Assembly: GCA_000165345.1 (NCBI GenBank)
Contig: CM000436.1
Coordinates: 992,001-1,056,000, forward strand
Length of the DNA stretch: 64,000 nt
Direction of reading: 5' to 3'
Part shown: positions 5,500 through 63,408 of the stretch, in pieces
How the letters are laid out: each line of letters begins with the position of its first letter
Numbering within the stretch: the stretch's first letter is position 1
Program-made: the position numbers and the translations under genes
Notes under the pieces: model-generated
Database searches by the model: none
What the model saw: the letters and a program-made list of their open reading frames with translations, nothing else
What the model was told of the DNA's origin: nothing

Positions 5500-5799
5500 T
5501 TTTAATTATAAATAATTGCATGCACAAGAATAAATATAAAATAACTGTGTGTGCGAGAGAGAGCGCGCCAACATTGCATGTTTTTTTTTTTTTTTTTTGA
5601 ATGGAATTGAATTGAATTATAATATAAACTTGAACAAAAGTTATTATTTATTGAAATGAAAGAAACAATTGTAATGCAATTTTTTTCTTTCGTAATTACA
5701 GTAGGAAATATTTGATTTAATTATTATAATAGAAGAAGAAAAAAATTAGAATAGAAAATATATAGAATACCATAGTTAATAAATATATTTATTTAGTGA

Positions 5800-8950: not shown

Positions 8951-8972
8951 TTTTTGGCAAGTTGGCGGGAAC
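8951..8972. promoter_or_regulatory. E2F-like promoter element TTTTTGGCAAGTTGGCGGGAAC upstream of the HisRS gene.
   Basis: GC-rich GGCGGGAA core in an AT-rich intergenic region. It shares the extended TTTTGGCAAGTT..GGCG form with the Rpn3 promoter at 21531. Confidence 0.6.
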
Positions 8973-11922: not shown

Positions 11923-12754
11923 AGATTGTTTAAAAATGATTTAAGCCGCGATATTGTATTTTTAGGTCAGTGTAATAATTGACCTTAAATTTCAATCTCT
12001 CGCCTAATTACTTATTGATTTTAATCCCACTTTAAGTAGTAGTCTAATACTTCTTATTTTCTTAATATAATACTTTCCCTATTTTTACTCAAAACCCTAA
12101 TTATGTGTTATTTCACCACATATTAAATCTATCTTATTTAAATCGTTTTTTTTTTTCATTGCTAATCACACAATTTCCGGAGTGAACGGAGACATAGACG
12201 TATCACATTCGTCACATTGACTTTTGGTTATAAAAAAAGTAGTAATTGTGGAAAAAAAGAGAAAGTAGAGGTAAGCAGAGGTTATCTTTGCAAAACATAT
12301 AGGATATATTTAAACATATAAATTAGTAAAATCTCATTTTTCTTTGTATCTTTAGAGCACATCTTTTTAATTTTTTACTTTAAAGTTTTTTACATGTTAT
12401 ATGCACACGTCTATGATTAGATTTTTGTAATAGAGTATTTTATTACAAAAAATAATACATGCATAACTTTGCTTTAAATTCTCAGGCTTTAGTTTTAATA
12501 GAAAATATATTAAGAATTTTCAAATTCTTTTTTTTTTTTTTACATATTTTTTGCAAACTAACAAACTTTAGAGGTTAATTTGGTAGTTAAATTGTGCAGG
12601 CAGAATTGTTTAGCTGCAAATTAGAAAAAATATTTTATTTTGCTGTGTTAATTTTTTTAGTTTAATATTCTAGATTTTTTTCCTCGTCATACATAATCCT
12701 TATATTATCAAAAGCTGTTAGCATACATTTGTTTTTCTAATATCGGTAATCAAC

Positions 12755-12776
12755 CCGCCATGAGTTTTTGGCGGGA
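12755..12776. promoter_or_regulatory. Inverted E2F-like pair CCCGCCATGAGTTTTTGGCGGG about 135 bp upstream of the filamin-like gene's exon 1.
   Basis: Seen in sequence. The same CCCGCCAT.AG.TTTGGCGG architecture recurs at 63377. Confidence 0.55.
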
Positions 12777-12910
12777 ATCGTTTGTGGATGGTCTAATATT
12801 GTGCATGTAATGCAATTTAATGGCTAGTTAATTATATAGAAAAACTAATTAGGAGTATAAGAGCAGTCAAAATACTGGCTAGACAGTAATAGCTTTCTGA
12901 ATGGGAGACT

Positions 12911-19610: not shown

Positions 19611-20231
19611 AATTACTTTAAAAGAAAAGATACATATGTATTTATATGTATCTTTTTTTTTTTTTTTTTAAATCAAGTATGATTAATAAATAATAATTAT
19701 GAATACAAATATATTTTCAATATTGGGTATAATATTGAATTAAGATGAAGGAGAGGGGAAGAGATAAGATTGATAAATATTAAATATATATATATATATA
19801 TAAATGGATAATTAGGTTAGTCTTGGTTTATAATTAATAATATTATGTACAATATATTAATATATACGATCTTTGAGTATTCTTCTTTTTCTTTCTTTAA
19901 ATAAAATAATAATAAATTATTGAATGAATTACTTCAAGAAGTAAAATTCAATGTTGAATGATGGATGGGGGGCAAAAAAAGAAATATATAAGTCAATTGC
20001 AATTAATTAGAAAGTGGGGAAGGAAAAATAATAAATAAATTACATGGGAAAAAAAATAAATTTGAGAGAATATGGCGCCATATTTATTTATTCTTAAATC
20101 TAATTTAATATTTTTATTAAGAATATAAAACATGTTATATTTAATTAAAATTTCTTTTTTTTCCTGAGAAATGTTCAAGAATTAATAATATCGTTTATAT
20201 TATTTTAAATTAATTACACCAGTTATAGGGC

Positions 20232-20268
20232 TTAGGCGGGAACATTTTAAGACACGAGTTTGAGACGG
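20232..20268. promoter_or_regulatory. E2F-like GGCGGGAA element plus a GAGACGG box, about 200 bp upstream of RPS29 and in the divergent region shared with the AP-sigma gene.
   Basis: TTAGGCGGGAACATTTTAAGACACGAGTTTGAGACGG. Confidence 0.5.
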
Positions 20269-20469
20269 AATTAGGTCAGAATGAATAATTAAGGAATAAT
20301 AAATGATAAATAAAAAAGTAGTAAGGTAATAAATATAATATACAAAGCAATAAATAAATTATTAAAAAAAAACAGGCGGTAAATTAAAGGGTGTATATTT
20401 TGAGAAAAAAAGAGCAAATGTCACAAGGGAGTTTTAATTAATTAAAACAAAACTTACATTAATTTAAGA

Positions 20470-20640
20470 ATGGGCTACAGCAAGGTTTACAATTCACATC
20501 CAAAGACTTACGGTCAAGGCAGCAGATGTTGCCGTGTCTGTTACAATCATCATGGCTTAATTAGAAAGTATTCACTGAACATTTGCAGACAATGCTTCCG
20601 TGAAAGAGCAGAAGCAATAGGATTCCACAAATATAAGTAA
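20470..20640 (+). CDS. RPS29: 40S ribosomal protein S29 (uS14), 56 aa, single exon. It is absent from the ORF track because it is below the length cutoff.
   Basis: Translation [56 protein letters not shown] has the zinc-binding CxxC...CxxC core and GLIRKY motif of eukaryotic S29. ATG at 20470, TAA at 20638-40. Confidence 0.9.
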
Positions 20641-21530: not shown

Positions 21531-21556
21531 AATTTTGGCAAGTTTTGGCGCCAACT
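21531..21556. promoter_or_regulatory. E2F-like element AATTTTGGCAAGTTTTGGCGCCAAC about 245 bp upstream of Rpn3.
   Basis: GGCGCC palindrome core in an AT-rich region upstream of the gene. Confidence 0.6.
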
Positions 21557-23423: not shown

Positions 23424-24090
23424 CTCCTCAAGCCGCAATTTCACTTATCCAAAATTCTTGAGGAAGCTCTTTTTAATTTCTTTTTCTTTAAAAAATATTT
23501 ATCAAACTTCTTTATTTACTTGAATAATAATATATTTCTTTGTTATTTATTATTAAATTACCTGTCCTCTTTTGCCACTATTCATCTCATTTATTTAAAT
23601 TAATTGTTTTATTTTATATTGTCCACATAAAATAATACATTAATTACTTTGCTTGCACACCGGTATAGATTTTCTGGCGTTTGCATGAAATAAATGCAAA
23701 AATAGTTACGTGGAGAGTAATGTTGCACTCTTGGCGGTAAATTGTGGGGTAGTTAAAATATGTAAAATAAAAGAGTAGTAATAAGTTGATAAAATAACGA
23801 TAAATAAGAAGAGAGGATTATGTTCCATGAAGATTGAGTAGCAATTGATTATTGATTGCTTTTAGTGTAGCTTAAGTTGTTGTTGGTAATTGTTTAAGTA
23901 AAGTTTTTTTCCCCCTTAAGGTTTTAATTATCGAAACAAATTAAAATATAATTGGAGAATTACATTACTATTTAATTAGTTGTGGATATTTCAAGATAAC
24001 TGGCTTTATTAAAAGATAAATAAGATAGTTTAACAATTTATATAGTAAAAAAAGAATAATTAATATTTGGTAAATACTAATAAAAAAAAA

Positions 24091-30777: not shown

Positions 30778-31188
30778 ATAAATTCAATATAATTAATATT
30801 TATATAAACTTATTGATATATGTATATATATCAATGTAATTCTTACTATTTGTACTTGTATTTAGATTTTCTAATATTGTATATTGAAAGAATATTGAAT
30901 TAAAAATTATTTGTTATTAATATATTTTTTTTTTTAATTAAATTAGTTTCACTTATTCCCGGGTATAGCTAAAATATGAAAATTCTATTAATTCCCCATT
31001 ATTACCCAATAATTAATAAATTTGTAATCGAAAAAAAAAAATATATATATATATATATATACATATTTATATTTATATTTACATTCCCACAATTAATTTT
31101 AAAAAAGTTGGCAAAAAAAGTATATAACAAAATAATTAGCTCATAATACAAATATTTAAGCCATATTATTTAAATCAAATTACTTAAT

Positions 31189-32191
31189 ATGTCTGTATTA
31201 GTTACTGTTGGTACCACCAAATTTGATTTACTAATAAAACAAGTTGATAAAGTAGAATTTCTTGATCAATTTTAGAATTGGATATAATAATTTATGTATT
31301 CAATATGGGAGGTAATGTAAAATTTCAACGCCACGTGTTTTTATTATTTATTGCATGCATGCAATAACAATAAAAACACGTGTATATTACGTAATTGTTA
31401 TTTAAAAAAATAATAATTTTTTTTAGTGGNGAATATGTTCCAATACCAAGAAAAGTTAAACATAGTAAAATTTGTGATAATATTATTGGTAATAATAATG
31501 AGAAATTTCTTGAAATTAAAGCAATACCTTATATGAAAGAGATTATATATTTAAATTATGATCTTATAATAGGTCATGCAGGGGCTGGTACAATACTAAA
31601 TTCTTTAAGAANTAATGTAAGTTTTATTTATTGGATTATATTAATAATAGTCCAATTATATTAAGTTATTCAAGTTAAAAAAANNATTATTTGAAATAAT
31701 GAAATAATTAATTTATTACTATCTTAACAATAAACTTATTTAACTTAAATACTTAGAGAAAAATGATTGTTGTAATAAACAAATCTTTAATGGATAATCA
31801 TCAAGCTGAGTTAGCAACACAACTCGATAATAATAAATATCTTATTGCTATTGATAATGTTAATGATTTAATTAACACAGTAAGTTATCTTAATAATTAT
31901 TAAAAAAATCATTCTAATTTATTAAAAATATTAACAATTTTATTAATTCCTTAATTTCATATTAATTTATATAATATTTCAAACAAACATATAATTTCCA
32001 ATCATCAATTCATTCTTTTACTTATTTTGAAGATTAAAACTATTACATCTATTTCATTTTCATATGATATCCCTAATCAAGATCAAAATACTGTTTCAAC
32101 ATATCTTATTCCTTTTCCCAAAGCTAGTAATACACACTTTAAGGAAGAAATTAATAAATTACTTTCTAATAGAAATATTTGGAAAGATTAA
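31189..32191 (+). CDS. ALG13: ALG13 (UDP-GlcNAc transferase subunit) as a 4-exon gene: exon 1 31189..31316, exon 2 31427..31616, exon 3 31757..31879, exon 4 32033..32191. Exon 1 needs a 1-nt correction in a T-run near 31270-31275, and the ambiguous base at 31430 behaves as an inserted base.
   Basis: Exon 1 gives MSVLVTVGTTKFDLLIKQVDKVEFLDQF(frameshift)LELDIIIYVFNMGGN, matching the ALG13 N-terminus (FVTVGTT.FD.LI...EF.Q.L...G...L.IQ.G.N). Exon 2 gives EYVPIP...YDLIIGHAGAGTILNSLR, matching VISHAGAGS.LE.L. Exon 3 gives RKMIVVINKSLMDNHQAELATQL, matching KPLIVV.N..LMDNHQ.ELA. Introns 2 and 3 have GTAAGT donors at 31617 and 31880, and acceptors at 31755-56 and 32031-32. Stop TAA at 32189-91. Confidence 0.6.
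31332..31382. repeat. Perfect 14-bp inverted repeat CACGTGTTTTTATT / AATAAAAACACGTG flanking TGCATGCATGCA, inside the proposed ALG13 intron 1.
   Basis: Seen in sequence: 31332-31345 is the exact reverse complement of 31369-31382. The AP2-type TGCATGCA element sits at 31352-31363 between two CACGTG boxes. Confidence 0.8.
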
Positions 32192-32345: not shown

Positions 32346-32373
32346 TTCCCGCCGAAACGGGTACCGGCGCGCG
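32346..32373. promoter_or_regulatory. E2F-like element TTCCCGCCGAAACGGGTACCGGCGCGCG about 270 bp upstream of the tetraspan-membrane-protein gene.
   Basis: GC-rich island in an AT-rich intergenic region, with the GGTACC box adjacent as at other sites. Confidence 0.55.
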
Positions 32374-34003: not shown

Positions 34004-34014
34004 TTTGGCGGGCT
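34004..34014. promoter_or_regulatory. E2F-like element TTTTGGCGGGC about 305 bp upstream of Prp43.
   Basis: GGCGGG core in the AT-rich region upstream of the gene. Confidence 0.5.
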
Positions 34015-34318: not shown

Positions 34319-36463
34319 ATGGGGAGTGGAAGAAAAAGAATAAAAGTAGAAGAAAATGAGAAATCAATTGAAGTTGATAAAGAATTAAATCCATGGAACA
34401 ATGATAAACCATATTCAAATAAATATTATGAATTAAGAAAATTCAGAAAATCTCTTCCAGCTTGGTCAGAAAGAAAAACTTTCTGTAAATTAGTAAAAAA
34501 GAACCAAGTTGTGATTTTAGTTGGAGATACTGGTAGTGGAAAAACAACGCAATGCCCACAATTTATATTAGAATCTGGATTAGGAGGAAATTTAAAGATT
34601 GCATGTACTCAACCACGTAGAGTGGCGGCAATGAGTGTAGCTCAGAGAGTTTCAGAAGAAATGGATGTTTGTTTAGGTGATATTGTTGGATATACAATTA
34701 GATTTGAAGATAAGACAAATGAAAATACGAGACTTAAGTATGTAACAGATGGAATGTTACTTAGAGAAGCAATGTATGATAATGATTTATCTCAATATGG
34801 AGTAATTATTATTGATGAAGCACATGAGAGAACAATCTCAACAGATATTTTAATGGGATCGCTTAAAGAAATATTACTAAGAAGAAATTTTGAATCAAAA
34901 AATCCTTTAAGATTAGTAGTAATGAGTGCAACATTAGAATCAACAAAATTTCAAAGTTATTTTGGTAATGATTCACCAGTTTTTTCAATTCCAGGAAGAA
35001 TGTTCCCTGTTGAATTAATATATAATATAAAACCAGAAAAAGACTATTTAGAAGCATCAATACAAAAAGTACTTGATATACATGAGAATGAAGCACCAGG
35101 TGATATATTATTATTTTTAACAGGAGAAGAGGAAATAGAGCAGGCAAAACAACGTCTAGAATTTTTAAGTTCACCTTTAGAAGAACAATTTGGTGAATTA
35201 GTAATAATACCATTATATTCATCATTACCTCCATATAAACAACAGAAAATATTTGATAAAACTCCAGGACCAAAATATCCTGGTGGTCCTACAGGACGTA
35301 AAGTTGTAATAAGTACAAATATTGCAGAAACTAGTGTTACAATTGATGGAATAGTTTATGTAATAGATCCAGGATTTTCAAAACAAAAAGTATATAATCC
35401 CCGTACAAGAGTAGAATCATTACTCGTTTCACCAATATCAAAAGCTTCAGCAAAACAAAGAATGGGAAGAGCTGGTCGTACAAGAGAAGGTAAATGTTTT
35501 AGATTATATACTAAAGAAGCTTTTGAATCAGAATTGGCAGATCAAACACATCCTGAAATATTAAGAAGTAATTTAAGTAATGTTGTATTAATTTTAAAAA
35601 GTTTAGGTATTAATGATTTAGTTCATTTTGACTTTATGGATCCTCCAGCACCTGAAACTTTAATGAGAGCTCTTGAACAGCTTTATTTTTTAGAGGCAAT
35701 GGATGATGAAGGAGAACTAACTAAATTGGGAAAACTTATGACGGAATTTCCAATTGATCCTCAATTGGCTAGAATGTTAATAAAGTCATCAGAATTAGGA
35801 TGTGCTTCTCAGATATTATCTTTAGCAAGTTTATTAAATGTACCAAATATATTCTTAAGACCAAGAGATAAATCAAAAGAAGCTGATTATGCAAAATCTA
35901 GTTTTGTTGATCCAGATGGGGATCATTTAACTTTGTTATATGCATTTGAGTCTTTTAGAGAAGTATTATACAAGGATGAGAATAAAGCAAAAAAATTTGC
36001 AAAGGAGAATTTCTTGAATTATAGAGCACTAATTTCAGCAGAAAATGTAAGAAAACAGCTTGAAAGAACTTATCAAAAACATATACTTAATACAGGTAAT
36101 CATATTAATTCTGATAATGATCAAATTTCAGAATCAAAACTTAATATTTCTATTAGAAAAGCAATTACCCAGGGATTCTTCATGCAAGCAGCTTGTTTAC
36201 ATAGGTCTGGGCATTATACTACAGTTAGAGATAATCAAGTAGTACATCTTCATCCAAGTTGTGTTTTAAGTTCAAAACCAGAATGGGTATTATATAATGA
36301 GTTTGTTCTGACTTCTAGAAATTTTATCAGAACAGTAACTAAGATTAGAGGTGAATGGTTACTTGAGATTTCTCCAAAATACTATAATCTTGAAGATTTC
36401 CCGGAATGTGATTCTAAGAAGAAGCTTGCTCATCTTAATTATTTTTCTAATAAAAAATTCTAA
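34319..36463 (+). CDS. PRP43: DEAH-box RNA helicase Prp43/DHX15 (pre-mRNA splicing and ribosome biogenesis).
   Basis: Helicase motifs GDTGSGKTTQ (I), TQPRRVAA, DEAHER (II), SAT (III), TNIAETS (V) and QRMGRAGR (VI). The N-terminal NPWNNDKPYSNKYYELRKFRKSLPAW matches the Prp43 N-terminus. The 714-aa size fits. Confidence 0.9.
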   Translation: MGSGRKRIKVEENEKSIEVDKELNPWNNDKPYSNKYYELRKFRKSLPAWSERKTFCKLVKKNQVVILVGDTGSGKTTQCPQFILESGLGGNLKIACTQPRRVAAMSVAQRVSEEMDVCLGDIVGYTIRFEDKTNENTRLKYVTDGMLLREAMYDNDLSQYGVIIIDEAHERTISTDILMGSLKEILLRRNFESKNPLRLVVMSATLESTKFQSYFGNDSPVFSIPGRMFPVELIYNIKPEKDYLEASIQKVLDIHENEAPGDILLFLTGEEEIEQAKQRLEFLSSPLEEQFGELVIIPLYSSLPPYKQQKIFDKTPGPKYPGGPTGRKVVISTNIAETSVTIDGIVYVIDPGFSKQKVYNPRTRVESLLVSPISKASAKQRMGRAGRTREGKCFRLYTKEAFESELADQTHPEILRSNLSNVVLILKSLGINDLVHFDFMDPPAPETLMRALEQLYFLEAMDDEGELTKLGKLMTEFPIDPQLARMLIKSSELGCASQILSLASLLNVPNIFLRPRDKSKEADYAKSSFVDPDGDHLTLLYAFESFREVLYKDENKAKKFAKENFLNYRALISAENVRKQLERTYQKHILNTGNHINSDNDQISESKLNISIRKAITQGFFMQAACLHRSGHYTTVRDNQVVHLHPSCVLSSKPEWVLYNEFVLTSRNFIRTVTKIRGEWLLEISPKYYNLEDFPECDSKKKLAHLNYFSNKKF

Positions 36464-36614
36464 TGAACATGAATAAGTTATTTTTGTTATAAAATATTAC
36501 TAGAATTAAAAAGAATTGCCTTTTTCTCTTTATTTTAAATATATTGTTTAATATATTACGTGTCAATAATTTATTTATCACACATATTCATTAAAATAAT
36601 TATGCATCAATAGG

Positions 36615-37020
36615 TTTGGCGCTCTATAAGCATAATAATATATCATACCTTTTAATAGTTTTATTTTTTTCATTAAAACTTACTTCATTTTATTGTTTCA
36701 TCTTTTTTTCATTATTTCATTAATTCTTTCTTTCTCTCCTTAATATATATTAAAGAAAGATTAAATTTTCCTTCTACTATAATAAATATTTTTTATTTTT
36801 CAATCTATTCAAAATCTTTATCTACTAACACAACGCACTATTGCAATTAAAAAATATACATTTATAGAATACAACTGGTTTGGCGCCAAAGACTATTTGC
36901 ATTTCTTTTCCTCCAGTCTATTTTATACCTGTAACAATTCAATTAGAATATTTCCTTACATGCATGCAAGTATATGCATGCATTTATGTGGACCAAAAAA
37001 TACACGTGGGAGGGGCAGGG
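36615..37020. promoter_or_regulatory. Cluster of promoter-type elements in a convergent intergenic region: TTTGGCGC (36615), TTTGGCGCCAAA (36879-36890), two TGCATGCA boxes (36959-36985), CACGTG plus a G-rich box (37003-37020).
   Basis: Seen in sequence. The flanking genes end at 36463 (+) and 37493 (-), so neither promoter is expected here. Confidence 0.5.
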
Positions 37021-37492
37021 AAAAGTTTGAAAGCAGAAAAGGTAAATTAAATATATAATTAATGAAAGTTAGATTTTAGGATTTTTTTTCACTTTTTTTT
37101 AAATCATTTTCATTTAACGCAAATAAAAAATATTAATTTAAAAACGTAGAAAAGATAAATATTTTAGTTACTTGAATTATACAAGAATATTTACAAATTG
37201 TAAATATGTGAGTATATAATCTTGTATAAAACACAAATCAATGAGTTTGTGAAAAATTATTTTTTTTAATTTGATACTGTGGATATTAACTTTTCTTATG
37301 TTGGATTAAAATTATAAGTTATAGTATGAACAGTGAAGGGAAATATCATCTTTTTGCCTTTTTTCTGTTTTGTTTTTTTAGCGTTTCTAAAATGACCATT
37401 ACTTTAGCAGTATTAAAATAATAGTATATCCTGTCGTAAACAATTTTTAAATAAAGCATAATCAACGTTTTCTTATTCACTTATTTCAATTA

Positions 37493-39298
37493 CTATTGTA
37501 CTCCAGGATATCTTCTTATACCAGGAGGGGGAGGCGGAGGAGGAGGAGGTGGAGGCGCAGCTCCTCCCAAAGAAGCACCGAAAGGTGAACCAGTATTCAT
37601 GGGTGAAGATTGCACTGGATTATTTCCTCCCATCATTGGTGGAATAGAAGTTGGGGCAGAATAAGAAGATGATGACGGAGGTAGTGGTGGTGGTGGCAAT
37701 GTAGAGGAAACTGTTTTTGGAAACCCTGAACCAGAAATGGCATCTCCTCCTGACATATATGATGAGCTTGGTCTGGGAGCTTGTGGGAATAATCCTTGCT
37801 GAGGTTTTGGAGGAGGTGGACTTGTTACAAACTGTGAATTCAAAGCCTGTGAGGGAGGAGATATTGCTGGAGAAGAGGCAGTTACCAGAGGAGCTTTTGG
37901 CATTGGAGGAACCGTTGGCATTGGAGGAGCTGCTGGCATTGGAGGAGCTGCTGGCATTGGAGGAGCTGTTGGCATTGAAGGAGCTGCTGGCATTGGAGGA
38001 GCTGCTGGCATTGAAGGAGCTGCTGGCATTGGAGGAGCTGCTGGCATTGGAGCTGCTGGTATTGAAGGAGCTGCTGGCATTGAAGGAGCTGCTGGCATTG
38101 GATGGAGAGGGGACTTTTGAGAATGAAGACCTTGTTCTGATGGAGAAAAGGCCTGGCCAAAGTGGTGCTGGCCATTGGCAGACAATAGTGGAGGAGAAGA
38201 AGAGGAGCTCTCGCCCTTAAATTGAAATTGGCTTGGAGTCTGGGCTCCAATAGTTCCAGAATTTTGTCCCCCCTGTTCTTGGAGAGAGGGCTCCTGAGTC
38301 GGATGTTGATTATTCATTGCAGATTGGAAGTCATTACTGAGCTCAGAGCCAATATGTTGTTGTTGTTGCTGGTGTTGTTCGTTTCCTGATATATTGGTAA
38401 GAACCTCCCATTTACCTTCCGAGTTTTCTCTAAAGAGAGTAACAACATCCTCTCCACTAGAAGCAGCTAAAACTGTTCCTGTTACACTCCAAGATACCCT
38501 CCAGACTGGCTCATTAAAGTTAAGTACTTGGCTACTATGCCAACCTTGTCCATCAGCATCTTGAGTCCAAATGACTACAATTTTATCATCACCGCAAGAA
38601 GCAATAGTCTCAGCAAGAAGATCTACAGATGGTCTCCAAGCAACATCTCTTACCCACTCAGAGTGAGCAACATCCAAAGTCTGATTCATCTCAGAAAGCT
38701 CCTTTGTTTGTGGATCCTGCTTCCAGATACGTATCTGGTTATCACACCCTCCAGAAACAAGTCTTATAGTTTGGGAAGATGGATTTGACGGTGAATTACC
38801 TACAGAGTTAGTTGCTGGAGCCCAAGATACTGAATTTGCTCCATTTGGGTGTCCAAATACCTGCTTCTTTGTCCAGCTCCTAGTTTCTGGACTATATGAA
38901 CAAACAGCTACCGAACCATCCGAAATAGCACAGGCAAATTGAAGCCCAAAATCCCATGGACACCAACAAACACCATTAATTGAAGATAAAAAATCATCAC
39001 AAGAGTAAACAATTTCCCATCTTGATCTTTGAGTTTCTTTCCAAACTAGAACCTTCTTATCATATGAACAAGAAGCTAATACACTCCCAAATGTGGGGTG
39101 AGCCCAACAAACCTGCCAAACTGGCCCTTCGTGACCTCTTAATTCTGCCAAGAAAGTTGGCTGATCCGTAGAGACATCAAATATTCTTATTGTGTGATCT
39201 GATGATGCTGTTGCCAGTCTACGGCCATAATAATCTAATTGTGTGTCATGCACTGGACCAGTATGGCCAGTATCAAAAGTTCCAATAACTTCCGCCAT
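37493..39298 (-). CDS. SEC13: Sec13 (COPII / nuclear-pore WD40 protein) fused to a roughly 300-aa Gln/Pro-rich C-terminal extension. The extension contains about 10 tandem heptad PMPAAPS repeats and a terminal poly-Pro tract.
   Basis: The N-terminal 300 aa match Sec13: DTGHTGPVHDTQLDYYGRRLATASSDHTIRIFDV...LRGHEGPVWQVCWAHPTFGSVLASCSYDKKVLVWKE. The C-terminus has QHQQQQQH, then (PMPAAPS)n, then PPPPPPPPPPPPGIRRYPGVQ. ATG at 39298. Confidence 0.8.
   Translation of the reverse strand: MAEVIGTFDTGHTGPVHDTQLDYYGRRLATASSDHTIRIFDVSTDQPTFLAELRGHEGPVWQVCWAHPTFGSVLASCSYDKKVLVWKETQRSRWEIVYSCDDFLSSINGVCWCPWDFGLQFACAISDGSVAVCSYSPETRSWTKKQVFGHPNGANSVSWAPATNSVGNSPSNPSSQTIRLVSGGCDNQIRIWKQDPQTKELSEMNQTLDVAHSEWVRDVAWRPSVDLLAETIASCGDDKIVVIWTQDADGQGWHSSQVLNFNEPVWRVSWSVTGTVLAASSGEDVVTLFRENSEGKWEVLTNISGNEQHQQQQQHIGSELSNDFQSAMNNQHPTQEPSLQEQGGQNSGTIGAQTPSQFQFKGESSSSSPPLLSANGQHHFGQAFSPSEQGLHSQKSPLHPMPAAPSMPAAPSIPAAPMPAAPPMPAAPSMPAAPPMPAAPSMPTAPPMPAAPPMPAAPPMPTVPPMPKAPLVTASSPAISPPSQALNSQFVTSPPPPKPQQGLFPQAPRPSSSYMSGGDAISGSGFPKTVSSTLPPPPLPPSSSSYSAPTSIPPMMGGNNPVQSSPMNTGSPFGASLGGAAPPPPPPPPPPPGIRRYPGVQ
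37899..38102 (-). repeat. 21-bp tandem repeat (about 10 copies, GCTGCTGGCATTGGAGGAGCT and variants) encoding the PMPAAPS heptads of the Sec13 tail.
   Basis: Direct tandem periodicity of 21 bp. The ORF-track entries 37717..38220 (+) and 37882..38250 (-) are frame shadows of this repeat. Confidence 0.85.
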
Positions 39299-39456: not shown

Positions 39457-39483
39457 AGCGCGCCAAAAGATTAATACGGTACC
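39457..39483. promoter_or_regulatory. E2F-like element GAGCGCGCCAAAAG plus GGTACC in the divergent promoter between Sec13 (-) and the centrin-like gene (+).
   Basis: GC island at 39421-39483 within an AT-rich 640-bp divergent intergenic region. Confidence 0.55.
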
Positions 39484-42245: not shown

Positions 42246-42258
42246 TTTGGCGCCAAAA
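42246..42258. promoter_or_regulatory. E2F-like palindrome TTTGGCGCCAAAA in the divergent region between the patatin gene (-) and a Ser-rich ORF (+).
   Basis: GGCGCC palindrome about 55 bp upstream of the patatin ATG (minus strand) and about 220 bp upstream of 42474. Confidence 0.55.
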
Positions 42259-43298: not shown

Positions 43299-43333
43299 TT
43301 TGGCGCCAAAATGGGTATCGTTTGAGACGCGCC
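43299..43333. promoter_or_regulatory. E2F-like palindrome TTTGGCGCCAAAA followed by GAGACGCGCC, about 500 bp upstream of the RRM-protein gene.
   Basis: GAATTTGGCGCCAAAATGGGTATCGTTTGAGACGCGCC. Confidence 0.5.
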
Positions 43334-43813: not shown

Positions 43814-45292
<1,479 letters not shown>

Positions 45293-45362: not shown

Positions 45363-46813
45363 TTAATCTAATGTGTTGATGCTTTCAAGGTTTATTGGCA
45401 TTTTACACTCATCTTGATTATTATGTACTTTGTATTTGTGATCATCTTGATGATTTTCAGATAAAAGATAGCAGGAAATAGCCTTAACAGGAGCGGATAC
45501 ACATAATTTAGGCTTAATTTCATCATTTGAATCTTCTTCATTGATTATTCTTCTTTTAAAACAAAGTTTAAAAACCCCAACATTATTAACTAAAACAATA
45601 AGTATAACCAAACAGCCAAAAAATGCAGCAATAGACATAGATTGACCAATCTTATATACTTCTTTAATAAATTTACTAGAAGCTTCAAGATGCAATACTG
45701 TTAAGCTGTTTGAATCTTGTTCAATATTAATATCTTCTCTAGTAGCTAATTTAATTCTATTAATAGCATTAACAAAGTTTTCATTATTTAAAGATGGATT
45801 AATAAAGTGACCAGAATGTATATTGTACATATAAAAACTTGAATTATGTTTATTAACTTTATTTGGTAAGAAGAATAAAATTAAATCCATAATATGATAT
45901 AAACTAAATTCTTCCGATCTGAATCTAATTAAACGTAAAAGAAATAGAGTAATATCTCCAAGTTTCATTATATGCCAAGTTGCAGTTTTTGGAAAGTCAC
46001 CATGTACTAAAGGAGTATTATTTCCATAAAGTCCAACCTTAACAATTCTTTTATTAGGATCTAAATGTTTATGGAACATCCAAAGTTCTAAATAATCAAC
46101 ATCTAATCTTCCTGATAAATTCAGTTCTGTTATATCTGATGAAGATTTTCCTCTAGTTTTACTGGTTTTCATAATAAATGTATCTTCAATAGGATGCTTA
46201 TCAAGAGTCTGATTATCTAAACTAGTAAAATCTCCTTGATTAGTTTCAAAACAAAGACAATTTCTTCCACATCTTCTTACTGGTGCCTTTTTATATCCTA
46301 ATATACCTTGACTTCTTAATACTAGAAAGAATTGATTGTCATCTAGAAATTCAATTTCATCATTTACTCCTCTTTTATTAAATATTTGATTTCCGGTAAC
46401 ATCAGGTACAGTAATTGGACAAATTAGTATAGATGGTGCTTCAAAATAAGGTTGTATACCAGTTGAGGCTAACATGGATACAAACCATCCAGTTTGAGCA
46501 AAAATAATGAATAATAAGCCGCATATGAAATATAATGGAAACCATACAATAAGTTTAATAAAGAATGCAAAATTCTCAGCTTTTCTTGCTTCAATAGATT
46601 TACCAAATGATCCATCTAAAATAAATAAATAAATATATATATATATATGCAAGTCAATAAAAATTAATTAGAAGATTAAAGAATAACTTTATCATTATAA
46701 TTTAATGATAAAATCTCTATTTCTAAAAACTTACATGGTACTACAAAATTTCGAAATGATGAATAAATACTGATAATTACTTCTTTGATTGTATGTATAA
46801 TCTTGCTAATCAT
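45363..46813 (-). CDS. Two-pass transmembrane protein (TM segments near both termini, large middle domain) of about 440 aa. Proposed structure is exon 1 46735..46813, intron 46616..46734, exon 2 45363..46615.
   Basis: The main ORF is open for 59 codons upstream of its first ATG, and the ORF-track start is TTG. Upstream, ATGATTAGCAAG...GTAGTACCAT|GTAAGT provides ATG 46813 plus a GTAAGT donor (46734-46729 on the minus strand). The poly-Y tract TTATTTATTTATTTTAG acceptor ends at 46616 and joins in frame (…FVVP-Y-GSFGKSIEARK…). TM segments are FAFFIKLIVWFPLYFICGLLFIIF and SIAAFFGCLVILIVLV. Confidence 0.55.
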
Positions 46814-47185
46814 ATTAAATAATTTTTAAGATTGATTGCTTTTTTTTTTGTAATGAAATAACCAGATTAATTATTTTATAATTCTTTTTTATGGAATACT
46901 TTTTTTTTTAATTTTTATTTCCTTTTTTCTTATATCTACAAAGATTGAAGAAAAAAGAAATTTATTTATTAGAATGCAAGCAAGTTAATATGTTTATTCC
47001 AAAGTAATGCTTGAAATTTAATCCATTACTTAAATTAGTGTCATTTTATATTCATTCACAGAAATATAAATATATATCTTTATATATAAATATTACCTGT
47101 TATTTAGTTTTTTTTAATAATTTTCAATCAATTCTCTTTTCAACATATTTATTACATGATCATTTTACAATTTAATAAAGGGCAC

Positions 47186-47219
47186 GGCGCCAAAATTTTG
47201 GCGCCGTTGGCGGTACCGG
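47186..47219. promoter_or_regulatory. Perfect 20-bp palindrome GGCGCCAAAATTTTGGCGCC (double E2F-like site) plus GTTGGCGGTACCGG, in the divergent promoter between the 46813 (-) and 47478 (+) genes.
   Basis: Seen in sequence. It is the only GC island in the 660-bp divergent intergenic region. Confidence 0.65.
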
Positions 47220-47477
47220 ATAATATAAAAAGATGTAAAATGTCAAAAAAAAACGCTGCAATTTGTAAGGGAAGAAAAAAAAGTATAAAAACTTAAAAAA
47301 TAAGAAAATATTTGAATGTAAACTTATAACATATATAGATATATGTACATATGTATATAGGTTGGAATTCTTTAATTATTTTTTAAATTAAGATTAGAAC
47401 AAGATAGAAAATAGAGAATTTGGGAAAAGAATAAGAATAAGAAAAAAGGAAAGTATAATATTGGAGTCAAAAAAAAA

Positions 47478-50775
<3,298 letters not shown>

Positions 50776-50894: not shown

Positions 50895-52993
50895 TTATTT
50901 TTTAAATGTTTGTGGTAGAAAGGGATCTCTAATTCCAGTATTAGGATTAGTAGGAGTAGGATTGATTCCGNTTCCAGAAGTTGTATGATGAGGATTAACT
51001 CTGACTCCTGAAATAATGGGAGTAGGGTTCATACTCATCATATCAGGAGTGGGTGTAGTAGGATGAGGATTGATTCTGATTCCTGAAACAATTGGAGGAG
51101 GATTAACTCCAGTTCTGGGAGTTTTGGAAGGACTAATTCTGATACCAGAAGCAAAAGACTGGGGATTGGTCCCAGTACCGGAAGTGGTTGTAGGATGAGG
51201 GTTGACTCCAATTTTGGGGATTGTGGAAGGACTAACTCTAACACCTGATGCATAGTTTTGAGGATTTGTTCCGAGTTCAGAAGTAGGTATAGTAGGAGGA
51301 TGAACTCCAATTCCAGGGGCTGTGGGCGGAGTGGCTCTGACACCTGAGGCTGTTGGTGGAGTGACTCTGACACCTAAGGCAAAGGACTGGGGATTGATTC
51401 CAGTGCCGGGAGTGGCCGTAGGGTGGTGACTCACTCTGACTCCAGGAATAGATGTGGGAGGGTTTATTCCAACGCTTGAAGTGACAATGGGAGGATTCGC
51501 TCCAGTTCTGGGAATGACTGTAGTTTGGGGGCTCGCTTTGACTCCAGGAGTGGGTTTGGGAAGAAGATTGATTCCAGTTTCAGAAGCGACTGTAGAAGGG
51601 TTTACTCCAATTCCAGGTGCGACTGTAGGAGAATTCACTCCAATTCTAGGGGAAATTTGAGGGTTCANTCCAACTCCAGAAACGACTTGAGGGTTCACTC
51701 CGATTCCAGTAGTAATTTGAGGGTTCACTCCGANTCCAGAAGCAATTTGAGGGTTTACTCCAGTTCCAGAAACAACTTGAGGGCTAATTCCAGCTCCAGG
51801 AGTAATTTGAGGGTTCACTCCGATTCCAGTAGTAATTTGAGGGTTAATTCCAACTCCAGGAGTAATTTGAGGGTTCACTCCAATTCCAGAAACTACTTGA
51901 GGGTTTACTCCAATTCCAGGAGCAATTTGAGGGTTAGTTCCAATTCCAGTAGTAATTTGAGGGTTCACTCCGATTCCAGAAGCAACTTGAGAGTTTACTC
52001 CAATTCTAGGGGAAATTTGAGGGTTTACTCCAGTTCCAGGTGCGACTGTAGGAGGATTCNNTCCAACTCCAGNANNNNNTTGAGGGTTTACNNNAACTCC
52101 NGAAACNACTTGAGGGNTNANTCCANCTCCAGNANNNANTTGAGNGTTNACTCCNANTCCAGTNNTAANTNNANNNNNAANNCCNACTCCTANNNNTAAT
52201 TNNNNGNTTCANTNNGAATTNCANTANTAANNNNAGNGTTCACTNNNANTCCAGNANCTTCTGCTAAAGATGAAGATGGATTATTTTTATTAGTATTTGG
52301 TTGTTTCTGAATATAATAAGGATGTGAAATAATATTTCTACTAGTTGTTGTAATATTTGAATTCATATTTGAACTTATCTGAGAAGAAGAAGATAATGAT
52401 GAATTTATTATACCTGTTGGAACATTAAGATTACTTGAAATCATGTTATTTTTAACTTGTATTTGATTACCAATCAAATTCTGTAAATAATTTTGTTGTA
52501 ATTGCTCTAATTGTGATTTATTAATTTGTGAATTAATTACCATAGAAGATACTCCTTCATTCATATTATTCATCATCATCAAATTAGAATGACAAATATT
52601 TGAATTATCAACTTGGATAAATTGTTTCTCAAGTCTTTTCGATTCTATTTCTCCTTGTTCCTGTTCCACTTCTTTTACTCCATTTGTTTGTGTTCCAGTT
52701 ATTCCAATTCCTTGATTATAAATAATTGAAAATCTCTTCACATGTTCTGTGAATAATTCTTGTATTAATTTAAAATCTCTCTCTATCAATTTTAAACTTG
52801 TAAATATTTCATCTCTTGGCTTATTTTTTAATTCCTTCAATTTCTCTTTTAATTGCATTAATGGTGTAATATTTGTATTTAAAGAAGATAAAAGTCCATT
52901 CTCATTTTTATGATAGTTAATATTATTATTATCACTCTTATTAATCGTCTTATTTAATGTATCTCTACGTACCTTTTCTTCCCTTCTAATCAT
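50895..52993 (-). CDS. Probable single gene encoding a coiled/Asn-rich N-terminal region followed by more than 25 tandem decapeptide repeats [G(V/I)NPQ(I/V)(T/V)(T/S)G(I/V)]. The repeat region (about 51590-52260) is riddled with ambiguous bases, so the frame is unverifiable.
   Basis: ORF 52190..52993 (ATG at 52993, MIRREEKVRRD...) runs into N-rich sequence. ORF 50895..51968 is opened by GTG inside the repeats and ends ...RDPFLPQTFKK*. Both are on the minus strand with no intervening stop outside the N-rich stretch. Confidence 0.45.
51590..52260 (-). repeat. 30-bp tandem coding repeat (GGAGTGAACCCTCAAATTACTACTGGAATC-type units) with many N calls.
   Basis: Direct 30-bp periodicity (ttgagggttcactccgattccagtagtaat...). 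Plus-strand ORFs 51454..51660 and 51525..52199 are shadows of it. Confidence 0.8.
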
Positions 52994-53312
52994 TTTTTTT
53001 TTATTTTTTTTCTCCTAGTTCTCTCTATCACTTATTTATTAATTCAAAATCTAATTTAATCCAATCCAATCCAATTCAATCCGAAATGAACTCATTTATT
53101 ATTAATAATCTCAACAATTTTAAGAACTTAAATGTGTGTGTGCGTATAGTATTTATATCTATATCTTCTTTATACTAATAAACACCAATTTATTCATGTT
53201 ATTTCACTTGTTTCTTTCTCTTTTCTCCTTGTTATATATATATTCGTAATTTTCTTTCTTTTCTTTTATTCTTTTTCTAATTAATCTAAAATTACTTAAT
53301 AAAGCGTGATCT

Positions 53313-53337
53313 TGGCGCGCGCGCCAAAGCAGGTACC
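53313..53337. promoter_or_regulatory. Palindromic E2F-like element TTGGCGCGCGCGCCAAA followed by GGTACC, about 320 bp upstream of the repeat-protein gene.
   Basis: It is the only GC island between 52994 and 53400. Confidence 0.6.
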
Positions 53338-57381: not shown

Positions 57382-57394
57382 TTCCCGCCAAAAC
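57382..57394. promoter_or_regulatory. E2F-like element TTCCCGCCAAAAC about 400 bp upstream of the MAD1-like gene (minus strand).
   Basis: GGCGGGAA core on the gene strand. Confidence 0.45.
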
Positions 57395-58582: not shown

Positions 58583-58608
58583 ACGTGTGGCGCCAAAATA
58601 CCCGGTAC
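58583..58608. promoter_or_regulatory. CACGTG plus E2F-like TGGCGCCAAAA plus GGTAC in the divergent promoter between the 58361 (-) and 59302 (+) genes.
   Basis: GACACGTGTGGCGCCAAAATACCCGGTAC. A second box, AGTACCGTCTC...AAAGGTACC, lies at about 58980-59030. Confidence 0.55.
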
Positions 58609-63376: not shown

Positions 63377-63408
63377 CCCGCCATAGATTTGGCGGTAAGC
63401 ACCGTCTC
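63377..63408. promoter_or_regulatory. Inverted E2F-like pair CCCGCCATAGATTTGGCGG plus CCGTCTC, about 125 bp upstream of SF3b3.
   Basis: Same architecture as the 12755 site. An AP2-type TGCATGCGCATGCA box lies at 63069-63086 in the same divergent region. Confidence 0.55.

Follow-up and report, generated by a model that had tools for sequence, protein, structure and literature searches.

The window, i.e., the entire 64,000-nucleotide stretch analyzed, has a GC content of 28.6% and consists of densely packed long open reading frames that mostly lack introns. The encoded products are eukaryotic housekeeping proteins, among them HisRS, proteasome Rpn3, a DEAH helicase, centrin, a patatin, a CBF/Mak21 protein, an HMG-box protein and an AP sigma subunit. 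The Rpn3 and centrin-like proteins show 100% residue identity to C. parvum entries (QOY40171.1, QOY40178.1 and others), and orthologues of the window genes carry chromosome-8 locus tags. Based on the exact protein identity, the window is assigned to Cryptosporidium parvum, chromosome 8. Two genes absent from the list of open reading frames were added: the 56-aa ribosomal protein gene RPS29 (20470-20640), too short for the 100-aa list, and an ALG13-like (Glyco_tran_28_C) gene with introns and a few N bases at ~31189-31903. According to the gene models of this ORF map, 47.5 kb of the window are coding and 16.5 kb intergenic. The intergenic GC content was measured as 23.8%, in agreement with the ~75% AT background given in the preliminary description.

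Two regions of elevated GC content belong to protein repeats. Within the gene at 50895-52993, a tandem array of 30-bp (10-aa) units spans positions 51634-52257 and accounts for local GC values of up to 47%. N bases are scattered through the last 200 bp of this array, which suggests a consensus over a repeat that is polymorphic in length or sequence. The second GC-rich island (37493-38300, 45% GC) encodes the Pro/Ala-rich repeat tail of a 601-aa WD40 protein, composed of PMPAAP units and poly-Pro, and is not a regulatory feature.

At positions 47186-47219, in the divergent promoter between a 429-aa gene (minus strand, ATG at 46652) and the CBF/Mak21 gene (plus strand, ATG at 47478), lies a composite of short GC-rich boxes. 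It comprises two GGCGCC boxes (47186-47191 and 47200-47205), a third box TTGGCGG (47207-47213) and an overlapping GGTACC (47212-47217). The first two boxes together form a perfect 20-bp palindrome in C. parvum (47186-47205). The composite forms GGCGCCAAAATTTTGGCGCC at 47186 and TTGGCGCGCGCGCCAA at 53312 had been pointed out beforehand, and both are present exactly as described. The palindrome ATGATCAT (47156-47163) is located 23 bp upstream of the focal boxes, and the block CGGATAATATAAAAAGATGTAAAATGTC (47218-47245) follows downstream; both are kept in the same four species, C. parvum, C. meleagridis, C. ubiquitum and C. canis. Together with the focal boxes they make up a promoter module of ~100 bp.

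The focal boxes are members of a family that recurs throughout the window. The pattern TTGGCG[C/G] was found 25 times on both strands, compared to 1.20 +/- 1.24 matches expected from dinucleotide shuffles, and none of 100 such shuffles attained this number. Intergenic DNA contains 23 of the matches (0.44 expected; highest shuffle 4) and coding DNA two (0.71 expected), a density ratio of ~33-fold. Equal frequency in coding DNA, which the preliminary description had named as speaking against promoter boxes, was thus not observed. The palindromic form TGGCGCCA is present six times in intergenic DNA versus 0.01 expected. For comparison, we used the syntenic regions of C. meleagridis, C. ubiquitum, C. 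canis, C. felis, C. bovis and C. muris in addition to C. parvum; the intergenic bias recurs in all six of these other species. A further 8.9 kb of C. parvum sequence to the right of the window has boxes in 3/3 new promoter regions and none in coding DNA. Many near-identical 10-12-mers in a single window could also represent a dispersed repeat, the remnant of a mobile element, or an effect of chance or composition. This explanation has next to no probability, as the observed counts were unmatched in any of 100-300 shuffles and the sites are orthologously placed in seven species. In addition, an all-against-all BLAST of 160-bp flanks revealed similarity confined to the motif; the boxes are therefore not a dispersed repeat.

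Alignment of 36 oriented intergenic instances yielded the consensus tTTTGGCG[C/G][C/G]AAa. In each box, a 6-bp CG core ([C/G]GCGC[C/G] or GGCGGG) is flanked by T-rich sequence on the 5' side and by A-rich sequence on the 3' side, and asymmetric GGCGGG forms make up about half of all boxes. Every GC island named in the preliminary description carries a GC box, with the qualification that the box at 23672 is just a weak variant (TTCTGGCGTTTG). At least one box is found upstream of 22/24 assessable genes and in 15/16 5' intergenic regions, RPS29 and the ALG13-like gene included. The distance from a box to the nearest ATG ranges from 58 to ~850 bp, which is wider than the 50-500 bp initially given.

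Several boxes are located in divergent promoters. An outward-facing inverted pair, CCCGCC...TTGGCGGGAA, occupies 12754-12777 between a 783-aa gene (minus strand) and a filamin-domain gene (plus strand), and both the pair and its downstream block GTTTGTGGATGGTCT are kept in C. canis. A second outward-facing pair, CCCGCCATAGATTTGGCGG (63377-63395), separates a GMC-oxidoreductase-like gene (minus) from a CPSF_A/RSE1-type gene (plus). The inverted pair had been described as one element seen twice. Both copies exist, at 12754 and 63377, but their spacers are not the same, with two bases of difference (CCCGCCATGAGTTTTTGGCGG and CCCGCCATAGATTTGGCGG), and the literal pattern matches neither. The palindromic TGGCGCCA at 20073-20080 lies between the AP-complex sigma subunit gene (minus) and RPS29 (plus). 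Between the WD40 gene (minus) and the centrin-like gene (plus), the plus-strand box GCGCGCCAAAA is followed by GGTACC 13 bp away (39458-39483); both elements are kept in five species, and the longest conserved run of that intergenic alignment is GCGCCAAAA. The site TTTGGCGCCAAA at 42246-42257 lies between the patatin gene (minus, 58 bp) and the ELM2 gene (plus, 225 bp), and a box is found at the same place in 6/7 species, C. bovis being the exception. Finally, the plus-strand box TGGCGCCAAAA with GGTAC at N9 (58588-58608) is positioned between a 299-aa gene (minus) and the HMG-box gene (plus) and is kept in five species.

Further boxes precede individual genes. The histidyl-tRNA synthetase gene, which lies on the minus strand, has the plus-strand box TTGGCGGGAA (8962-8971) at 125 bp upstream. 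RPS29 is preceded by two additional plus-strand boxes, GGCGGGAA (20235-20242) at 235 bp, kept in C. ubiquitum and C. canis, and GGCGGTAAA (20375-20383) at 95 bp, which reads GGCGGTTAT in C. ubiquitum. The box TTGGCGCCAA (21545-21554), 251 bp upstream of the Rpn3 gene, is kept in C. ubiquitum and C. canis at an unchanged distance to the ATG. In the Timeless promoter, 358 bp upstream of the gene, the plus-strand box TTGGCGGTAA is directly followed by the G-box TGTGGGG (TTGGCGGTAAATTGTGGGG; 23731-23752), and both are kept in C. ubiquitum, C. canis and C. muris. The composite TTCCCGCC-N6-GGTACC-GGCGCGCG (32346-32373) upstream of a 278-aa gene (plus) is kept in C. ubiquitum and C. canis, and the DEAH-box helicase gene has the plus-strand box TTTGGCGGGC (34004-34013) at 312 bp upstream. 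The RRM-protein gene is preceded by the plus-strand composite TTTGGCGCCAAA-N-GGTATC-N-TGAGACGCGCC (43299-43333), which retains its cores, a spacing of 26-27 bp and the GGTAYC in 6/7 species, out to C. muris; the C. felis version is divergent, with a spacing of 22-23 bp and GGGTTC. For the repeat-containing gene 50895-52993 (minus), the box TTGGCGCGCGCGCCAA with GGTACC at N6 (53312-53337, plus strand) was located at 320 bp upstream, and box and GGTAY are kept in five species at 5-10 bp from each other. The minus-strand site TTCCCGCCAAAA (57382-57393; TTTTGGCGGGAA in the sense of the gene), 408 bp upstream of a 911-aa gene (minus), is likewise kept in five species.

Several palindromic boxes had been assigned to divergent promoters. 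Palindromes are indeed found in four such promoters, but also in three of the head-to-tail type. Boxes of the asymmetric GGCGGG form (TTGGCGGGAA) stand alone in head-to-tail promoters, and two divergent promoters contain them as inverted pairs that face outwards. By a hand count, and thus tentatively, 11 of 14 asymmetric boxes have the same orientation as the gene they face (p ~0.06).

A location 5' of genes, as originally proposed for the boxes, does not hold for those at 5563-5571 and 36615/36879, which are found between convergent 3' ends. The first, GCGCGCCAA, is a minus-strand box in a 3'-3' gap, where it probably serves as promoter for a transcript that is unannotated or antisense. The second gap, between the helicase (plus) and WD40 (minus) genes, contains the plus-strand box TTTGGCGCT (36615-36623) and a perfect TTTGGCGCCAAA (36879-36890), the latter followed by two TGCATGCA sites and a G-rich box (36960-37020). 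Together, the elements at 36879-37020 resemble an orphan promoter cluster within a convergent gap of 1 kb. Searches of this gap (36463-37493) for a non-coding RNA gene or a small open reading frame behind the boxes returned no tRNA, no plausible ORF and no Rfam match, either at the gathering threshold or at E <= 1. The cluster may drive an unannotated lncRNA. In C. parvum, lncRNAs arise mostly at gene 3' ends, and the 100 bp in front of them contain E2F as well as TGCATGCA motifs (Li et al. 2021, PMC7840661); for this reason an lncRNA promoter is the likeliest reading for the boxes in both convergent gaps.

The only promoter region devoid of boxes is the divergent promoter at 30778-31188, which has 15% GC and separates the WD40 gene from the ALG13-like gene. 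No box at all was found there, and the orthologous regions of C. ubiquitum and C. canis are likewise box-less. The two coding matches to TTGGCG[C/G], at 44873 and 44903, encode the conserved peptide WNFGAS. One of the corresponding stretches, TTTGGCGCC (44900-44908) in the RRM-protein coding sequence, specifies Phe-Gly-Ala, and four species of the AT-rich genus retain its GC-rich codons, GGC and GCC. Selection may therefore act on the DNA of TTTGGCGCC itself, in the role of a promoter that is internal or antisense.

Across the genus, the cores stand out from their surroundings. In four 7-species intergenic alignments, 18/42 core positions are invariant compared to 68/2637 non-core positions (odds ratio 28, Fisher p = 4e-17). 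Nearly all conserved intergenic runs of at least 5 bp are box cores, including the longest ones (GGCGCCA, TGGCGC, GCGCCAAAA, TGAGACGCGCCT). Boxes at orthologous positions were also identified for the sites at 12754, 20235, 20375, 21545, 23731, 32346, 53312, 57382 and 58588. This pattern of invariance indicates that the box cores are under purifying selection across the genus.

At the focal composite, both GGCGCC cores are present in 7/7 species and are 13-14 bp apart in all of them, while the sequence of the spacer varies; 10 of the 24 invariant columns in the alignment of this region lie in the two cores. The long palindrome is lost elsewhere, as illustrated by C. meleagridis (GGCGCCAGAGTTTGGCGCC) and C. 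bovis (GGCGCCACGGAGTGGCGCC). Since both cores are kept as the spacer changes, the 20-bp palindrome is incidental to two adjacent sites and is not a selected structure. The perfect symmetry of the focal element in C. parvum, together with the palindromic nature of several other boxes, might otherwise suggest that the boxes act through structure, i.e., as DNA cruciforms, RNA hairpins or terminator-like elements. Such a role is very improbable: orthologous promoters keep just the two 6-bp cores and the unconserved spacers show no compensatory pattern, about half of the boxes are asymmetric, and most are located 5' rather than 3' of genes.

The boxes are the already described E2F-type promoter motif of C. 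parvum. Oberstaller, Joseph & Kissinger (2013, PMC3734150) reported the E2F-like motifs 3 (DTTGSCGCCH) and 4 (TTTGGCGGGAAV) as the most abundant upstream motifs in this organism, from which the motif was originally described, and it had been noted earlier by Bankier 2003 (chromosome 6) and Mullapudi 2007 (PMC1779779, as a motif with GGCG core). The window boxes share organism, sequence and upstream location with motifs 3/4 and are instances of that family. Exact matches in the window amount to 9 intergenic positions in 5 distinct boxes for DTTGSCGCCH, 3 for TTGGCGGGAA and 7 intergenic ones for WSGCGCSW, although the literal IUPAC strings of motifs 3/4 miss some conserved boxes by one flank base (47186, 47200). 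[quoted passage not shown] 2025, 10.1101/2025.01.17.633476). Xiao 2025 and Li 2021 thereby account for three features of the window, namely boxes in shared divergent promoters, poly-T tracts and boxes in 3'-3' gaps. With the motif published in these studies and in Oberstaller 2013, the present finding is correct and not new. The claim that E2F-like promoter boxes are typical of Cryptosporidium is borne out by the assignment of the window to C. parvum, by a consensus that matches both the canonical E2F/DP site and the published motifs 3/4, by the intergenic, promoter-proximal location and by conservation throughout the genus. Their density, in turn, had been called striking, but boxes at 22/24 genes are normal for a genome in which E2F-like motifs are over-represented upstream of genes in 163/200 expression clusters, comprising 2,379 genes (PMC3734150). 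The conservation in seven species and the fixed spacing of the double box are shown here, and no mention of either was found in the published C. parvum motif work examined.

The boxes are very probably E2F-type cis-regulatory elements of C. parvum promoters, and E2F/DP proteins are the expected binders. The canonical eukaryotic E2F/DP site (TTTSGCGCSAAA / TTTGGCGGGAAA) shares with the boxes a symmetric 6-bp CG core and T-rich and A-rich flanks; examples cited in PMC3734150 are the E2F4-DP2-DNA structure (Zheng 1999) and the Arabidopsis sites TTTCCCGCC and TTTGGCGGG. Palindromic and asymmetric variants, as well as paired sites in some promoters, are common to both. In animals and plants, the site is the mark of a pRB-controlled regulon for cell cycle and DNA replication, whereas in C. 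parvum the boxes precede ~90% of genes of any function and pRB is absent. [quoted passage not shown] Points against an E2F reading are the reported lack of pRB and of most DREAM-type E2F interactors (PMC3734150), the two box clusters in 3'-3' gaps and the box-less divergent promoter. Binding data for a Cryptosporidium E2F or DP protein were not found in the literature searched.

Functional promoter elements could also be read by something other than E2F/DP, such as another CG-recognizing factor, or could act as an intrinsic signal in which a GC core within poly(dA:dT) excludes nucleosomes. The motif precedes ~80-90% of genes at all expression times (PMC3734150), so that it does not explain stage specificity and leaves room for a general, non-specific promoter role; in this respect it resembles a general promoter mark more than a specific regulator. 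A/T runs are in 2-fold excess within 30 bp of the window boxes, matching the poly-T beside E2F in the ATAC-seq peaks, and the 2025 review states that most regulatory components are without experimental validation. Nevertheless, we consider a reader outside the E2F/DP family unlikely. The consensus equals the canonical E2F/DP site position by position, T and A flanks included, and Cryptosporidium is the sole apicomplexan genus reported to have retained E2F/DP and the sole one with such an abundance of the motif (PMC3734150, 2025 review). Moreover, an AP2 binding study reports no tested AP2 domain that binds the motif.

If E2F/DP is the reader, the winged-helix domains of the heterodimer would recognize the CG core with its T-rich and A-rich flanks. 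Bound E2F/DP would then mark or open a nucleosome-free promoter region and drive transcription. Palindromic TTTGGCGCCAAA boxes, often placed in divergent promoters, could be read in both directions. We infer that one site serves two genes there, as the preliminary description had suggested, which fits the prevalence of bidirectional promoters among the ATAC-seq peaks (10.1101/2025.01.17.633476).

A second short element recurs next to the boxes. In 6 of the 18 core clusters of the window (the 18 include a chance match to the loose pattern at 11945), the A-flank of the box is adjoined by (C/G)GGTAY(C), often within CGGTACC. The elements are located at 32360-32365, 39478-39483, 43314-43319, 47212-47217, 53332-53337 and 58604-58608. 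The gap between box and element is 5-13 bp, with N6 at 32348, 43302, 47200 and 53320, N9 at 58589 and N13 at 39459. Given a background of 2.4% per random intergenic position, this corresponds to P = 3e-6 for N4-14 and P = 3e-7 for N6, both tests being chosen post hoc; SGCGCC-N6-GGTAYC, again a post hoc choice, was observed three times versus 0.00 expected. In an unbiased 5-mer screen within 30 bp of the boxes, GGTAC/GTACC was the top non-homopolymer (9.7-fold, p = 6e-4), a value that alone fails Bonferroni correction over 277 k-mers. Stronger support than from this screen comes from the fixed spacing and, independently, from conservation: at 6/6 loci the GGTAYC is kept in other Cryptosporidium species (up to six) with varying spacer sequence, and the promoter of the RRM gene retains it even in C. 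bovis and C. muris. In 5/6 cases, the element is found towards a plus-strand gene. The additional 8.9 kb of C. parvum sequence shows the co-motif in 0/3 new box clusters, where only three clusters are available for an element of ~30% frequency.

GGTAYC is absent from the 25 motifs of Oberstaller 2013 and is mentioned neither in the AP2 binding study nor, as a GGTAC co-element, in the texts of Xiao et al. 2025 and Li et al. 2021. Full-text literature searches for GGTACC or GGTAC with Cryptosporidium returned cloning-site mentions only.

We tentatively propose, with somewhat less than even confidence, that roughly every third E2F box is part of a composite element not described so far, with (C/G)GGTAY(C) on the A-flank side. 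A partner factor binding to GGTAYC could confer specificity on the ubiquitous E2F mark; alternatively, GGTAYC could be a direction-setting core-promoter or initiator-like element. In Plasmodium, the ApiAP2 domain of AP2-G recognizes a GTAC core. By analogy, an ApiAP2 domain might bind GGTAYC, which is only a lead. In mammals, the tandem CDE/CHR element bound by DREAM consists of an E2F-like site followed by TTYGAA 4 nt further on. The arrangement box-N6-GGTAYC may be likened to it, since in both cases a short element accompanies an E2F-type site at a small fixed distance; the second element, however, is TTYGAA in mammals and GGTAYC in the Cryptosporidium window. A CHR-like partner (TTYGAA) was not found within 10 bp of any box core in the window.

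For the biology of Cryptosporidium, the importance of the boxes lies in a single motif that is seemingly used at most promoters, which has been known since 2003-2013 and is reinforced by the ATAC-seq data of 2025. The present analysis introduces no new concept and makes a modest addition, namely purifying selection per site in seven species, the conserved spacing of paired boxes and the candidate partner element GGTAYC. If GGTAYC accompanies the boxes genome-wide, it would offer a concrete handle on how different promoter outputs are obtained from a near-universal motif.
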